A stretch of 28,529 nucleotides of DNA from assembly GCA_963749915.1 (NCBI GenBank), contig CAVVOP010000031.1, forward strand, positions 1 to 28,529, written 5' to 3'. Position 1 is the first letter of the stretch, and each line of letters begins with the position of its first letter. The notes under the pieces are model-generated. The model saw only the letters and a list, made by a program, of their open reading frames with translations, searched no databases and was not told where the DNA came from. This document shows positions 12,414 to 26,941 of this stretch, in pieces. A program made the position numbers and the translations under genes. Origin of the DNA: an uncultured cyanobacterium (GTDB taxonomy: Bacteria > Cyanobacteriota > Cyanobacteriia > Cyanobacteriales > Cyanobacteriaceae).

Positions 12414-12700
12414 ACATTGTTCTACGGCTAATTGATGCAAATTGGTAGCAACTTCTACTAACCTCTGTTTTTCCAGAGATTCAAAGTAGCTTTTACTCAT
12501 TTGTCCCAAATCATCTTTGTTTAGTTTAGCCATAAAATAAAGTTTAAACTATTTTGTCGGGCATCACTTCCTTTTTTCAATCAAATAACGGCCTATCTCT
12601 AATAAGTTATCCTATGATAACCGCTAACATTTCCAGCTTTCTCTAATTTGGGCTTGCCGATTTCAGGACTAATTCAGAATGGGGGGGAGTGAACGGTTAC

Positions 12701-13460
12701 CTGTGGGATAGCTGATTAAGTCATTCCAACTCCATCTCTCTTCAGTCAATCCCCCCCTCTGCGCTGCTGTCGTTCCTAACCGACTATTTTCCCAAATCCA
12801 ATTGAAATAGCTGACCACTAACCTTGCCGTTACTTTCGTTTGCTCCCAGACCTTGGCAAATTTATTTTGTTGCCGATGCCATCTTCCTGTCTGTTGCCGG
12901 AGAATTCCATTGGTCCTCTCCAGCTTTTGGTTTCCTTTTTTACTGATCTGGTGCTCTATCTCCTCTGTTAATACCCTTTGATAACCCCTTAAGCCATCAG
13001 TATTCCAGTTTTGGCATTGGGTTTTTCCTTCTGTGGTCACGAGCATCTCCTCCAGAAGTTGATCCTTTCGTTTTCCTACACGAGCTGCCAGAATCAAGCC
13101 ACTATCTTGAGCTAAACTAATTCCTATCCAGCAATCCCCGGCTATTATTTCGTCTGGTTCGCATTGGCACTGTTTTGTCTTGGTGCGCGTTCCCTTGCGT
13201 CTTACGCCGACGCGGGGTCGCACCGCTTTTCGACAAATGACCACATTTCATCAGCGCTTACTTGTTCTGTTTCCACTTGTTGAACCTCAGCATTATGTAT
13301 CATTTGAGCTTTTTGGCTAGCATCCCTAATCAAAGAAACTACTCTCAGTTTTGCCATGTTTGTAAGCTTTATGGTGACCGCAGAGAAGACATTTCATAGA
13401 AATAAATGGAATACTACTTTTCTATCATACTCTCATCCCACAGATTTTTGTTTCACGACC
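12701..13460 (-). mobile_element. IS1-family copy A (insA deleted, right end displaced by IS66, 51-nt insert)
   Basis: Left IR GGTCGTGAAACAAA at 13460. Near-identical to 15505-16213, with ADEMWSFV, TDG and LERTNGILRQ motifs. Confidence 0.9.
13177..13227 (-). mobile_element. 51-nt structured micro-element, copy E1
   Basis: AGCGGTGCGACCCCGCGTCGGCGTAAGACGCAAGGGAACGCGCACCAAGAC is present in IS1 copy A and absent from copy B, which has an A7 run there. Confidence 0.9.
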
Positions 13461-13599
13461 GATTCTTTTGTTTAACGTTTGCATCCATAATCAAACTTTA
13501 AGTATTGCCATAATTGATATGCTAAAATTATTCACAGTATTACATAAAATATCGAAAAAAACCATTAAATTTTTATCAGAATATCTTCCACTAATAGAA

Positions 13600-14244
13600 A
13601 TGAATATATCGATCGCCGATTTAAGAAAAAACTATACCCAAGGAGGATTACAAGAAAAGGAAGCCAGTTTAAACCCCTTTGAGCAATTTAGACATTGGTT
13701 TCAAGAAGCGGTTTCAGCAGAAATACTTGAACCCAATGCCATGACTTTAGCCACTATCAGTGAAGAAGGAAAACCTAGTGCAAGAATCGTTTTATTAAAA
13801 AAACTAGATGATCGAGGCTTTACTTTTTTTACCAACTATGACAGTCGGAAAGGGAAAAACTTAGAAAAAAATCCTTGGGCATCTTTGGTGTTTTTGTGGG
13901 GGGAATTAGAGCGCCAAGTGAGGATAGAAGGGAAAGTCGAGAAAGTTATCCCGGCAGAATCAGATCAATACTTTAGTAGTCGCCCCATCGGTTCACAATT
14001 GGGTGCATGGGCTTCAAATCAAAGTGAAGTAATACCCAATCGAGAAGCATTAGATATTAAGCTACAAGAAATCACCAGAAAATATCAAGGACAAACTATA
14101 CCCCGACCAGAACATTGGGGAGGTTTTAGGGTAGTACCTAATTTAATCGAGTTTTGGCAAGGGAGGGAAAATCGTTTACACGATCGACTCTGTTATAGGC
14201 TAGAAGATAATCAAGAATGGATAAGAGAACGTTTAGCACCTTAA
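13600..14244 (+). CDS. pdxH: Pyridoxamine 5'-phosphate oxidase
   Basis: IADLRKNY, EPNAMTLAT, PSARIVLLK, FFTNYDSRKG and EFWQGRENRLHDRL motifs. Likely start is ATG 13600. Confidence 0.97.
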   Translation: MNISIADLRKNYTQGGLQEKEASLNPFEQFRHWFQEAVSAEILEPNAMTLATISEEGKPSARIVLLKKLDDRGFTFFTNYDSRKGKNLEKNPWASLVFLWGELERQVRIEGKVEKVIPAESDQYFSSRPIGSQLGAWASNQSEVIPNREALDIKLQEITRKYQGQTIPRPEHWGGFRVVPNLIEFWQGRENRLHDRLCYRLEDNQEWIRERLAP

Positions 14245-14346
14245 CAAGGATAATCAAGGCTTTTGTAACCCTAACTTTTTCTCTGTTAAGACTTACAAAA
14301 GCCCGACAAGAGAAACAAACTTAAACTTGAAGGTTGTGTCTCCAAG

Positions 14347-14383
14347 TATCCTGACATAGATAGAAAACAGCAGAGTCAGGATA
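14347..14383. terminator. Possible stem-loop between convergent pdxH and psaK
   Basis: TATCCTGAC...GTCAGGATA 9-bp inverted repeat with a large loop. Confidence 0.3.
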
Positions 14384-14403
14384 TTTTGAGTATTAGTTGT
14401 CTA

Positions 14404-14682
14404 TTATTGTAAAAGTCCTGCGTTAGATAATCCTAAGACAAAACCAGCACCTAAAATATGTCCAAAACTGACAGTTGCTAATAATTCTGCCAGGCCAAAT
14501 TTTTTCCATAATGCCGGTTTTTCCACAGGTAAATCAGGACCGATTCCGGCTTTTTGAATAGCAAATCGTCCGATAAAAACTGCTAATAAATTCGCTGAAA
14601 TCATTACCAATGCCACGTTGAAATTCCATTCTACTGTCTGAGGAATATTTGCTAAAAGATTTGATAATGCTAAAAAAATCAT
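14404..14682 (-). CDS. psaK: Photosystem I subunit PsaK
   Basis: PQTVEW...VMISANLLAVFIGRFAIQ...ELLATVSFGHILGAGFVLGLSNAG. Confidence 0.95.
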   Translation of the reverse strand: MIFLALSNLLANIPQTVEWNFNVALVMISANLLAVFIGRFAIQKAGIGPDLPVEKPALWKKFGLAELLATVSFGHILGAGFVLGLSNAGLLQ

Positions 14683-14783
14683 GGTTTTAATCTAATTTGA
14701 TTGATGTTAACTATTTTTGTTATGTTAATAGTTATAGTGCCTTGTCTGTTGGTTTTCTTAAAATTTATTAATTATTTTTCATT

Positions 14784-15416
14784 ATGCGCGTCAAAATATG
14801 CGGTATTACTGATTTAGAACAAGGTTTGGCGATCGCCAATTTAGGAGCTGATACCCTAGGATTCATCTGTGTAGAAAAATCACCCCGATATGTGAACAAT
14901 GAAATAATTAAAAATATTATTCAACAATTACCGAAAGAGATAAGTAAGATTGGAGTATTTGTTAATGAAAATATCGATAATGTTATTAAAACAGTGCAAG
15001 AAACGGGATTAACGGGGATACAATTACACGGAGAAGAAAGTCCTGCTATATGTGCCCAATTAAGAGAATTTTTATCTGACATAGAAATTATTAAAGCCTT
15101 TCGCTGTCAAAATTCAGAATCATTGACTTTATTAAACAGTTACATTCCCGTCATCAACACTATTTTATTAGACGCTTATCAACAGGGGGTTTACGGGGGT
15201 ACAGGAAAAACCTTAAATTGGTTACAGTTAGCTGATTTTCGCCCTTCTCGCCCTTGGTTATTAGCTGGAGGTATTAATACTGATAATGTGTTGACGGCCT
15301 TGGAAACCGTTGAATGTGATGGAATAGATGTGTCTAGCGGTGTCGAAATCAGTCCGAAAAATAAGGATTTAGAGAAAGTTCGACTTTTATTTCAAAAATT
15401 AAATAGGGCTTGCTGA
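14784..15416 (+). CDS. trpF: Phosphoribosylanthranilate isomerase
   Basis: MRVKICGIT, SPRYV, QLHGEES, LLDAY...GGTGKT, LAGGI and DVSSGVE motifs. Confidence 0.97.
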   Translation: MRVKICGITDLEQGLAIANLGADTLGFICVEKSPRYVNNEIIKNIIQQLPKEISKIGVFVNENIDNVIKTVQETGLTGIQLHGEESPAICAQLREFLSDIEIIKAFRCQNSESLTLLNSYIPVINTILLDAYQQGVYGGTGKTLNWLQLADFRPSRPWLLAGGINTDNVLTALETVECDGIDVSSGVEISPKNKDLEKVRLLFQKLNRAC

Positions 15417-15504
15417 AAAAATTACCTAAAATTTTATTAGTATTTACAAGCTGAAGGAAAGATAATTTTTTCTTTCTCTTGAAAATAATATTGATAACTT
15501 ATCA

Positions 15505-16230
15505 GGTCGTGAAACAAAAATCTGTGGGATGAGAGTATGATATAAAAGTAGTATTCCATTTATTTCTATGAAATGTCTTCTCTGCGGTCACCATAAAGCT
15601 TACAAACATGGCAAAACTGAGAGTAGTTTCTTTGATTAGGGATGCTAGCCAAAAAGCTCAAATGATACATAATGCTGAGGTTCAACAAGTGGAAACAGAA
15701 CAGGTAAGCGCTGATGAAATGTGGTCATTTGTCGAAAAAAACAGTGCCAATGCGAACCAGACGAAATAATAGCCGGGGATTGCTGGATAGGAATTAGTTT
15801 AGCTCAAGATAGTGGCTTGATTCTGGCAGCTCGTGTAGGAAAACGAAAGGATCAACTTCTGGAGGAGATGCTCGTGACCACAGAAGGAAAAACCCAATGC
15901 CAAAACTGGAATACTGATGGCTTAAGGGGTTATCAAAGGGTATTAACAGAGGAGATAGAGCACCAGATCAGTAAAAAAGGAAACCAAAAGCTGGAGAGGA
16001 CCAATGGAATTCTCCGGCAACAGACAGGAAGATGGCATCGGCAACAAAATAAATTTGCCAAGGTCTGGGAGCAAACGAAAGTAACGGCAAGGTTAGTGGT
16101 CAGCTATTCCAATTGGATTTGGGAAAATAGTCGGTTAGGAACGACAGCAGCACAGAGGGGGGGATTGACTGAAGAGAGATGGAGTTGGAATGACTTAATC
16201 AGCTATCCCACAGTTATTTGATGCACGACC
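15505..16230 (+). mobile_element. IS1-family copy B (726 bp, non-autonomous, insA internally deleted)
   Basis: IRs GGTCGTGAAACAAA / TTTGATGCACGACC. MKCLLCGHHKAYKHGKT is cut after the first Zn-ribbon half. A7 frameshift site at ~15735-15741. Confidence 0.92.
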
Positions 16231-19675: not shown

Positions 19676-20182
19676 GTTACTGCAAGATGGATGGCTCAAG
19701 GTTCTCATTGTGGTTTACCCGCCTTAGAGCCTGGAATGTCTTTAATAAAGAAGCCAAACTGACCCGCCATCAAACGGACGCTTTAATTATTAAAGCCTTT
19801 CCCGCAGTAACCTATTCAGAAAATAAACACATCATGATTAAGGGCGATGCGTCCCCATTCAATGGTGACATTATTTACTGGAGCAAAAGAGAATCCAAAC
19901 ACTACGGTGGGATAACAGTCAAAGCTTTAATCAAGCAAAACCATACCTGTGGATATTGTGGACTAGGATTTATCGATGGTGAAGATATAAACCTCCATCA
20001 CATTGATGGTAACCACAATAACTGGAAACCTCAAAACGTGACGGCAGTACACAAGTCCTGTCACCATTATATTCACCTGAGCAAAAGGGAAACCTGAGAT
20101 TGTCGGGAGCTGGATACACGGAAACGGGTACGTCCAGTTCTAAGTGGGAGGAGCGGAAGATAATACTTCCCTTCGACCCTAC
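19676..20182 (+). mobile_element. Group II intron 3' remnant: IEP C-terminus with HNH, plus domains V and VI
   Basis: ORF 19687-20097 has KGDASPFNGD..YW, CGYCG, LHHIDGNHNNW and HKSCH. DV GAGCTGGATACACGGAAACGGGTACGTCCAGTTC at 20107-20140. DVI ends GACCCTAC. Confidence 0.9.
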
Positions 20183-24687: not shown

Positions 24688-24782
24688 TTAAGGTGAAAGT
24701 AAGGAAAAAAATAGGGAATGATTTTGATCAAATTATTAGAATAAAAAACTATTATTATAGTCACCAGAAAATTTGGTAAAAT

Positions 24783-25754
24783 TTACTTGAAGAAACTGTT
24801 TTTCTTCTTTTTTTTACTTTTATTTTTCTCATAGTCGATCTCTTTGATTTTCTTCATAATGCGATCGAAATATTCTTTCAAATAAGCTTCTAAAGTAGTA
24901 GTATCTTGGGGATCTAAATTAAATGTTTTATAGACTTCCTCCATCGGTGCATCTAAAGGCTTACCACTGGCTAAAACTTCCGCAAAAGCAAGGCGATCGG
25001 ATGTATTGAGAGTCCACTTAAACCAACGGGTAAAACCTCGTAAAAATCGCAGTAAACCGATGGGAATACGGGAAATTTTGGCTTTTTTGCCCGATAATCG
25101 CTCACAAAGCTGAATAATCTGTTCTCCTGTCCATGCACGGGTACCAACCACAGGATAACTATTATTAGCAGTTTCCGGAATTTCGATGGCTTTAAGGGCA
25201 AATTTAGCAATATCTTGGGTATTCATATAAGCAATAGGAGTACTTTCACCACTTACCCACACTGGTTGATTATCAAGGATGGGGATACCATATTGAGCAA
25301 TCAAACCCTGCATAAATCCCGCTAACTTAAGAATAGTATAATTTACGCCAGACTCTTGTAAAAATAACTCAGTACAATACTTAATCTCCATCAAAGGCAC
25401 ATTTTCAAAATCTTGAGCATTAAGAATGGAGAAAAATACATAACGTTTAATATTAACTTCTTTTGCCGCCCGAATTAAATTAACTTTACCTTGCCAATCC
25501 ACCTCTTGTATTCTCAATGAATCTGTCGCTCTGGCAGTTGCCGCATCAATGATTACATCTACCCCCTCAAAAGCAGGAATTAAGGTTTTCGGTTGACAAA
25601 TATCACCTTTGACTAATTCTGCACCCCATTCTTTCAAAAAACTAGCTCTAGCATTATTTCTGACTAAACAACGTACTTGATAATCTTGATCAATGGCATG
25701 ACGCACTATCTGTCTTCCTAAAGTGCCTGTCGCCCCAACTACTAATATTTTCAT
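24783..25754 (-). CDS. ycf39: Ycf39 atypical SDR (PSII assembly factor)
   Basis: VVGATGTLGRQIVR, FLKEWGAELV, VDWQGKVNLI, VPLMEIKYCTE and DRLAFAEVL motifs. Confidence 0.93.
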   Translation of the reverse strand: MKILVVGATGTLGRQIVRHAIDQDYQVRCLVRNNARASFLKEWGAELVKGDICQPKTLIPAFEGVDVIIDAATARATDSLRIQEVDWQGKVNLIRAAKEVNIKRYVFFSILNAQDFENVPLMEIKYCTELFLQESGVNYTILKLAGFMQGLIAQYGIPILDNQPVWVSGESTPIAYMNTQDIAKFALKAIEIPETANNSYPVVGTRAWTGEQIIQLCERLSGKKAKISRIPIGLLRFLRGFTRWFKWTLNTSDRLAFAEVLASGKPLDAPMEEVYKTFNLDPQDTTTLEAYLKEYFDRIMKKIKEIDYEKNKSKKKKKNSFFK

Positions 25755-25850
25755 TGATTATTAAGTTTATTTACATATTTTTAAATTTCATTAAGATTTT
25801 ATCAGAAAAGAGGAGAGGAGAATGAGCAATTAAAAATGGGCAATGAACAA

Positions 25851-26147
25851 TAGACCTCTTGCAAAAATAGATTTCTCGGTTAGGTAATTTTGGATCTCTT
25901 GGTCGGCATTCCCTCTCTTGGTGGACGTTCCCTTGCGACTTCCGTCGTCGCGGGCTTCCACCGCTTGCGCCTTTCGGCGGCACGGGGTCCGACCGCTTTT
26001 GGATTTTGGATTTTGGATTGGAAAAGCCTTTCTGGACTAGCGGGGGCATTTGCCCAGGAACCTACGGTTTTGAGAAAAGTAGTGTTCAAACCTCTTGATC
26101 TATAGCCTGAAACCCGCATTCTACCGCTGAAAATCTGCACTAGACTA
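25851..26147. mobile_element. MITE-like element with TTTTGGA heptamers hosting the nested 51-nt elements
   Basis: Left end TAGACCTCTTGCAAAA; degenerate right end TGCACTAGACTA. Confidence 0.5.
25896..25997 (-). mobile_element. Two nested 51-nt structured micro-elements (E3, 25915-25965, inside E2)
   Basis: 102 bp = 2 x 51. Both align without gaps to E1, and removal restores a perfect TCCAAAA heptamer run. Confidence 0.9.
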
Positions 26148-26941
26148 CCGTACGGATTTCTTGATTACGTACTTTGGCAACAAAAGTAGGGGAAACTTGA
26201 CACTGTTTGGCTATTACTCGATCGCTCCATTGACTCCATTCAGAATCTTGCAGTAAAGTCATGACAGCCTTACGTTTATCAGTATTACTACGGCGTAAAC
26301 CATGAGTAGAATTGACACCCAGAGAAAACAATAAAGCCTCTCGATAAGTACCAGGCTTTTCGATAAAGGGTAATTCAGTTATTCCTGCTTGTTTCGCCGC
26401 TTCTATCTACTCGGTGAAAGCCATCAACCAAATAATAACAGTCAGTGGGCAGTGGGCAGTGGCCAGTGGTGGTTAATTCAGAATTATGAGAATCAATTAT
26501 TTGATTATTTTCACTACTCTCTACTCCCTGCTCACTACTCCCTACTTGCTCTCCACTCCCTTCTTCTCTCCAGACGGTTATAGGAGGAAGTTCGACACCT
26601 TCAGAGTAAGCATTTTGATAATCATCCACCACAGAATAATTAATCTCTACCCTCTGCTGTAGGTTGACATCAATGGTAAGTAAAGTTAGCTTAATCTTTT
26701 CTGATACTTCTCGAATGCTATCTGAAATCGCCATCGGTTTATTAACCTTCTGAAGATTGTTAGCCAGTTCGGGGCTAAGAACATTAGAACTATCCCAATT
26801 AACCCAAAACTGCAACATCTTGCCGTTATTAACGTGAATGTCAATTACTTTGCCGACATTCCCCCTGGCAAATACCCAATCGCCGATTTTGACATTATGG
26901 GGATTGAGAGAAAAGTCAGGATAATGTTTCGATTTAAGCAT
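26140..26941 (-). pseudogene. ParB/Srx-like domain protein, phage/plasmid-type, frameshifted
   Basis: GGAGGAGG RBS; LPPITVW..YYLVDGFHR. Removing a TAGA duplication gives VEAAKQAGITELP...NSTHGLRRSNTDKRKAV...WSDRVIAKQCQVSPTFV (HTH). Confidence 0.8.

Follow-up and report, generated by a model that had tools for sequence, protein, structure and literature searches.

Micro-element copies and their hosts in the window

The window, which is the whole stretch of 28,529 nucleotides (nt) analyzed here (contig CAVVOP010000031.1 of assembly GCA_963749915.1, from an uncultured cyanobacterium), carries three copies, E1 to E3, of a 51-nt hairpin element. This element is real, mobile and structure-dependent, being larger than the small dispersed repeats (SDRs) of cyanobacteria but alike in behavior. 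The three sequences, their stems and the nesting of one copy inside another, as first noticed from the letters alone (the sequence-only reading), were all present in the window. The features of the locus are the following:

13176..13226, minus strand: E1, 51 nt, inserted in the gene of an IS1-family transposase, at its A7 run
12698..13463, minus strand: insertion sequence (IS) copy of the IS1 family holding E1, with a 174-nt internal deletion
15501..16216, plus strand: IS1-family copy without the element, empty site with the cut between 15738 and 15739, 174-nt deletion too
25895..25996, minus strand: outer copy E2, 5' part 25996-25965 and 3' part 25913-25895, 102 nt with E3
25914..25964, minus strand: inner copy E3, 51 nt, inserted at GCAA^GGG
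25997..26017, minus strand: three TCCAAAA heptamers upstream of E2, the target array (read directly)
25888..25894, minus strand: fourth TCCAAAA unit, downstream of E2
25851..26033, no strand assigned: repeat resembling a MITE (miniature transposable element with inverted repeats), host of the array and of E2/E3, one-ended copy
24783..25754, minus strand: NmrA-like gene for an NAD(P)-binding protein, lying 140 nt downstream of E2 and given as context only

E2 is interrupted by E3 at its own AA bulge, and an uninterrupted E2-type copy was found at G000:C30:13392, G000 being the source genome (4.69 Mb). The TCCAAAA array stayed in register once the 102 nt of E2 and E3 were subtracted. The MITE-like host has loose ends at 25851 and 26033; its terminal inverted repeat lies at 25851-25866, with the partner end outside the window, and whole copies exist elsewhere. 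The region of the NmrA-like gene was matched in same-genus genomes, the match ending before the repeat in five of six.

The two IS1 copies of the window are 99% identical, with the 15501-16216 copy being short by exactly 51 nt. The A run was unbroken in all five more distant (outgroup) IS1 alignments spanning the E1 site, which supported that the E1 insert is the derived state.

The G-T pair noticed in E2 (GTGCC/GGCGC) is present, but it is a mutation confined to this copy and to the duplicate of it on contig C34: the position had a Watson-Crick base in other copies and in contigs from three of four sequencing runs. No joint across the element was found in the DNA contigs from the sequencing runs. 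Window positions 24700-26500, including the E2/E3 locus, correspond to G000:C34:38560-40364 at 99% identity, a segmental or assembly duplicate.

Ends and length of the unit

The unit is GCGGT...ACCAAGA(C/G)A, 51 nt from G1 to A51. The sequence-only reading had given it as AGC...AAGA(C/G) at A^A sites; the 51-nt length and the scarless insertion stood, whereas the ends had to be shifted by one base and the A^A rule was given up (T-flanked empty site; A in 126 of 143 targets at -1). The upstream A at the junction belongs to the target and the final A to the element. Since the register is ambiguous at A-flanked sites, it was the comparison of empty and filled forms of a T-flanked site that fixed the ends, without any duplication. 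The empty form of this site was seen eight times in two genomes with no extra base, as expected from the earlier claim of insertion without target duplication, and the filled forms (L081 and L085) read GCGGT...ACCAAGAGA, 51 nt. A model with a one-base duplication was rejected on this empty site and on the final base, which was A at 15 of the 18 sites that have T at -1.

The covariance model returned identical ends for E1 and E3. Outside the G007/G012 lineage group, the 51-nt register held for 20 of 24 sites in heptamer arrays and for all 26 self-nested sites; within that group the unit was one base shorter (50 nt; 10/10 heptamer-array and 11/11 self-nested sites). The ends of the element are constant within each lineage. 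The comparison of filled and empty sites gave exact ends and revealed neither a truncation series nor a target duplication.

Sister forms with other tails, of 47-48 nt and 52 nt, were returned by the covariance model. Sister or composite forms of the source genome lie at C5:328420, C26:33120, C8:279207, C27:47144, C32:94360-94509 and C28:1333, and comprise a 47-nt variant present three times, a set of several small elements nested over 150 nt, and a unit of 52 nt that has the ends of the 51-nt element and a different core. A 48-nt sister family with the core of the 51-nt element and a GTT tail occupies GGGGATT-type arrays at L191, L204, L205 and L247 (genomes G305 and G022).

Fold and covariation

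The strand that starts with G folds into a hairpin with a 6-bp basal stem, a 2 × 4 internal loop (AN/AAYG), a CCC/GGG helix, a 2-nt bulge, a 5-bp stem and a 7-nt loop. We have examined pairing in an alignment (A2) of 91 of the 93 distinct sequences with a 7-nt loop, from which seven loci with unpaired stems (L101, L117 and L173-L177) were excluded. In A2, 98.0% of the cells were paired, a figure that this exclusion flatters, and two-sided change was found in 7 of 14 pairs. None of 500 shuffles reached the observed pairing, slid controls gave 20-43%, and RNAalifold recovered the identical fold. The metagenome copies, from which nothing was excluded, provided a fair out-of-sample test: 115 of 121 distinct copies paired at all eight positions left free by the search pattern, with many new stem types. 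The earlier view of a non-coding, structure-defined unit with kept pairing was thus supported by covariation in both sets.

The stems of 179 distinct elements contained 1874 Watson-Crick, 53 G-T, 6 A-C and 36 other pairs. The excess of G-T over A-C pairs indicates that it is one strand, the G-first one, that folds. Selection acts on this strand to fold into one hairpin. The 5' GC, A9, CCC/GGG, the WA bulge and the AA-N-G loop are kept; the pattern fixes these positions, and the covariance-model matches agree. The conserved GNCGNAA apical loop that had been proposed did not hold up, as 69 different loops occurred among the 179 elements; its sequence is free and its length is kept at 7 nt, sometimes 8. 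Single copies were only modestly more stable in folding than shuffles (z of -1.3 and -2.65), and the structural evidence is the covariation, not the folding energy. Many mismatches in the basal stem correspond to recombinants of nested pairs, with three 70-nt forms in the source genome.

Targets and self-nesting

We have tabulated filled and empty sites and derived a target consensus, as the sequence-only reading had proposed, and obtained A at -1 and no duplication. Among 143 independent non-self targets, position -1 was A in 126 and G in four, so that the site is best written N^N with A preferred. Positions -2 to -5 were biased toward A or G, and almost no information lay on the 3' side. These targets, together with the filled and empty sites, upheld the mobility claimed for the element. 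Insertions were found in heptamer arrays, palindromes resembling repetitive extragenic palindromes (REPs), MITEs, IS genes, omega/HEARO RNA and ordinary genes. At L129 and L149 the insertion lies close to the 3' end of a match to HEARO/omega RNA. One lineage also uses pyrimidine-rich arrays, and the A rule is not universal.

The element's own bulge (GCAA^GGG) and own loop satisfy its target rule, which accounts for self-nesting: 37 of 272 sites were bulge-nested, with a depth of up to five (L120).

The frame stayed open in 29 of 32 in-gene sites, and such copies add 17-residue inserts to proteins. In coding frames, 25 of 30 copies were sense, against 0.70 expected from the A-rich target bias (p 0.08, crude calls of open reading frames). 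Between co-oriented genes, 24 copies were sense and 18 antisense (p 0.44). Both orientations being used between genes, insertion would be into DNA rather than mRNA, and mRNA insertion was rejected as a general route on this 24:18 ratio.

Copies in the source genome

Most copies in the source genome are passengers of larger IS or MITE hosts. The IS1 host was filled in four copies and empty in one, and a second repeat was filled in four and empty in four. One MITE-like host, that of E2 and E3, was filled in six copies (49-102 nt) and empty in 11, and another was filled in eight and empty in 29, alongside a few odd spacings. One 102-nt composite occurs in two different MITE hosts that have a heptamer array in common. 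The genome perhaps records six to eight insertion events, with no current activity being required.

The empty IS1 copy of the window has the 174-nt deletion and one single-nucleotide polymorphism (SNP) in common with the filled window copy, and the three undeleted IS1 copies of the genome are filled. Either the empty copy has lost the element precisely, for which enzyme-free slippage from one AAAA run to another at the foot of the hairpin would suffice, or the filled copy has gained it by conversion. Mosaic SNPs among the IS1 copies, together with a possible assembly error, are compatible with both.

Some further observations concern the window and its genome. The two window IS1 copies (12698-16216) are divergently oriented and enclose three host genes (13468-15416), which we take to be pdxH, psaK and trpF, in a composite-transposon layout. 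A group II intron domain V/VI match (Rfam RF00029) lies at 20105-20182, and a short frame before it resembles the HNH end of an intron protein; the segment 19687-20182 is probably a truncated group II intron. A GC-rich hairpin 18-mer, with 52 occurrences, is the most abundant such word genome-wide.

Distribution

A strict pattern gave 21 matches in the source genome (none for the reversed control pattern), and was found in 3 of 41 relatives and in 6 of 401 genomes of a phylum sample. The collection of genome contigs yielded at least 119 stretches, 117 of them titled cyanobacteria; the remaining two of the 119 listed were one uncultured bacterium and one unpaired chance match. Metagenomes contributed at least 122 pattern matches. 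The covariance-model search suggested by the sequence-only reading returned more copies in the source genome and in relatives: the model R1, with strict filters and the best 97 candidates scored per genome, was positive in 16 of 61 relatives and in none of six genomes of the same genus. Among the best 150 candidates of each genome, four genomes chosen through loci with titled records had 127, 80, 143 and 82 matches and a fifth had 21; the five are two Waterburya metagenome-assembled genomes (MAGs), an Okeania MAG, ESFC-1 and Baaleninema.

The named matches included Okeania, Dapis, Xenococcus, Waterburya, Crocosphaera, Spirulina and others, with a single Rivularia MAG. The presumed Nostocaceae gave 0/46 by pattern and 0/5 by model at E below 1. 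The 51-nt element itself occurs widely among cyanobacteria. All 12 copies of genome G008 occupy one site of one IS transposase gene, and the element probably reached G008 as a passenger. Five of six matches in viral contigs were unpaired chance matches; a 99.9-kb viral contig (L178:2980-3151) carries three whole head-to-tail copies and a 5' part. No match was found to any Rfam 15 family model, a comparison proposed at the outset, or in the plasmid and phage collections.

Comparison with known repeats

SDR1-8 were reportedly described by Elhai et al. in 2008 as small dispersed repeats of Nostoc punctiforme and relatives. SDRs are gene-less units of 21-27 nt, mostly a multiple of 3 in length, that insert precisely, occupy heptamer-repeat and miniature-transposon sites, nest in themselves and have a compensatory structure. 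The heptamer arrays, MITE sites, self-nesting, compensatory change and mostly multiple-of-3 length were all found for the 51-nt element. Compared by the SDR descriptions only, it differs in its three-helix hairpin and in its length of 51 nt (50 in one lineage) against 21-27 nt, about twice the SDR size, in agreement with the sequence-only reading.

Like the non-autonomous derivatives of IS200/IS605, which are PATE-like, the element makes no duplication, has its target read 5' of the cut (with a weak consensus) and forms a strand-specific hairpin; unlike them, it has one hairpin instead of two subterminal ones with 4-nt guides, and a very loose target. The core box of an integron attC site pairs AAC with GTT at the crossover. 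Inspection of A2 revealed no AAC/GTT box on either strand, and an attC cassette was rejected. Likenesses to tRNA, group II domain V, retrons, kink-turns and attC were dropped, as the covarying stems do not keep them.

In the available parts of the SDR literature, the size is given as "some 20 bp" (PMC2884548), SDR5 is reported for Nostocaceae only (PMC5861425) and is described as inserting inside HIP1 (PMC4390886); further background is found in part of PMC3116915. Against these excerpts, the 51-nt element spans many non-Nostocaceae families and does not target HIP1, with G at -1 in four of 143 targets vs. A in 126.

The REP/REPIN repeats with their REP-associated tyrosine transposase (RAYT, TnpAREP), as outlined in excerpts of PMC3479197, PMC3733652, PMC3116915 and PMC6006769, have in common with the element an imperfect GC-rich hairpin with a bulge. 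Its commonest basal stem (GGTGCG/CGCACC) resembles the REP foot beside subclass-2.2-like RAYT genes, by our own reading of a table in the available part of PMC6006769. GTAG-type REPs beside RAYT genes at L467 (G438) and L275 (G000) have a GGTGC/GCACC-like foot, a lead on origin only. Unlike REPs and REPINs, the element has no GTAG or CGTC tag, a 5' overhang of GC only, a single unit in place of a doublet and no flanked RAYT gene; GTAG-type REPs are often its insertion sites, and it also enters genes in frame. The MITEs of cyanobacteria, Nezha for example, are described, in the accessible portion of PMC3184786, as at least 119 nt long with terminal inverted repeats and duplications. The element resembles them in being non-autonomous and dispersed, with empty and filled sites, but it is without terminal inverted repeats or target-site duplication and is itself MITE-borne. 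Our literature search, which covered listings and the opening lines of abstracts, returned no description of the 51-nt family, although supplements of the SDR paper could hold longer repeats. On the above comparisons, the element is not a REP, a MITE, an attC site or an Rfam family.

Search for a mover and possible routes

We have clustered the 766 reading frames that surround some 140 loci. The recurrent ones were IS transposases and common genes only, with no mover among them, and the recurrent family within 1.5 kb of copies was that of IS transposases serving as targets. This agreed with the lack of a recognizable mobilizer near the window copies in the earlier account. Enzymes were profiled at family level on 5 to 30 genomes, with IS110, Cas1, plasmid Rep and relaxase outside the set. 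At this level none of RAYT, TnpA (Y1) and reverse transcriptase (RT), the families that the sequence-only reading had proposed for co-occurrence profiling, tracked the element. The proposal in that reading of HUH/Y1 or RT transfer of a folded strand was supported as to the one-strand fold but not as to the intermediate or any particular Y1/RAYT or RT enzyme. The element's core motif was absent from TnpA-flanking ends among the Y1 loci listed (30 + 14 of other 30; 60 scanned), and no cognate RAYT gene flanked by the element was seen among the loci scanned. RtcB was present in four of five positive genomes and missing from G007 (84% complete, 46 matches). The strands of copies were mixed on near-closed chromosomes (150 of 453 matches listed), and the source genome has no clear GC skew usable for a lagging-strand bias. 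On G007:C4, 10 of 11 listed model matches lay on the plus strand, a post hoc pick, with other contigs and genomes mixed. An E1-bearing IS1 copy (G000:C8:888378-889756, L291) is some 700 nt away from an RT gene, presumably of the diversity-generating retroelement (DGR) type, which we take as chance.

That the element is mobile, structure-dependent and SDR-like we hold with high confidence. How it moves is a different matter, and our tentative proposal is a non-autonomous micro-element of the SDR kind moved by an HUH-type single-strand transferase. A trans-acting enzyme would recognize, in a single-stranded copy, the fold along with the loop and bulge bases that do not vary, cut at the hairpin foot and close a small single-stranded DNA circle, which, by analogy with IS200/IS605 TnpA, would be joined 3' of the target A. 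Recombination of nested copies yields the 70-nt chimeras, and IS and MITE hosts afterwards copy the element passively. HUH chemistry, as outlined in PMC3479197 and PMC6006769, fits best with the exact ends, the lack of duplication, the 5'-only target information, the bulged one-strand hairpin and the head-to-tail array of L178, which fits a circular intermediate. According to the available part of PMC3479197, target information 5' of the cut without duplication is likewise found in IS200/IS605, and an imperfect one-strand hairpin with a bulge is the substrate type of TnpA/TnpAREP.

Several results weigh against an HUH enzyme. The L178 array could instead be the product of an assembly error or of unequal exchange, known TnpA enzymes have a far tighter target consensus, and the G-T tolerance fits RNA at least equally well. 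Y1 genes were found in 10 of 10 positive genomes but also in four of five negative ones, and G435, with 80 matches, has just one weak, truncated RAYT-type frame. No element-flanked Y1 gene was found; two copies do lie less than 1.5 kb from such a gene, as ordinary insertions. IS91-type Y2 was present in one of five positive genomes. Across the 143 targets, neither a 4-nt guide at the foot of the hairpin nor any covariation of the guide type was seen; two weak signals (z of 6.2 and 5.8 vs. a permutation limit of 5.5) were not complementary.

It is less likely that a 51-nt structured RNA is cut from transcripts and written into nicked DNA by a group II intron-like or other RT, by a template jump or by target-primed synthesis, an RNA/RT route that Elhai et al. 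are said to have proposed for SDRs. The one-strand fold with frequent G-T (G-U) pairs, the asymmetric internal loop and bulge, which resemble a protein-binding RNA motif, the L178 concatemer, the RT present in each of the 11 positive genomes checked and the mostly sense coding inserts (25/30) would suit it. The sense excess, however, was not significant against the target bias (p 0.08) and was absent between genes, and RTs were found in 17 of 19 negative genomes as well as in all 11 positive genomes checked, with no RT type common to the five positives examined. The exact ends, with neither truncation series nor duplication, and the lack of an Rfam match also count against RNA. We consider it unlikely that an enzyme of another class, such as one of host repair, recombination or phage origin, captures folded single strands in a way unlike HUH or RT. 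None of the four profiled families tracks the element, and IS transposases serving as targets are the sole gene family recurring near copies, as such an enzyme would allow; yet no candidate emerged, the profiles are family-level ones covering 5 to 30 genomes, and a mover can disappear once a burst is over. Spread by gene conversion between repeats and as IS or MITE passengers alone, with no dedicated mobility, appears very improbable. The few host contexts in the source genome, the single IS site of all 12 G008 copies, the 102-nt composite in two MITE hosts with a common heptamer array and the mosaic IS1 SNPs would be in line with it, but 143 independent non-self targets, many of them in unique coding sequence, are not, and it leaves the compensatory change and the fixed ends unexplained.

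Implications

As mobile DNA, the 51-nt hairpin ranks with the smallest forms. The way in which such minimal mobile elements of bacteria move has been an open question since the description of SDRs, and the present family is long enough to be modeled, with exact ends, hundreds of sequence variants and empty sites. Genomes with over 80 copies, including those of named cultured strains, make the intermediate and the enzyme directly testable. In its hosts, the element can break or restore the slippery run of IS1. There is also a small chance that the element is used by an undescribed single-strand insertion system that is distinct both from the known Y1 HUH transposases and from the known RTs. If this were true, its sole need would be a short hairpin in which the internal loop and the bulge are defined; it would accept cargo at the tip (nested units of 102 nt and more), excise precisely and insert without a scar after almost any A, and SDRs would be accounted for as well.
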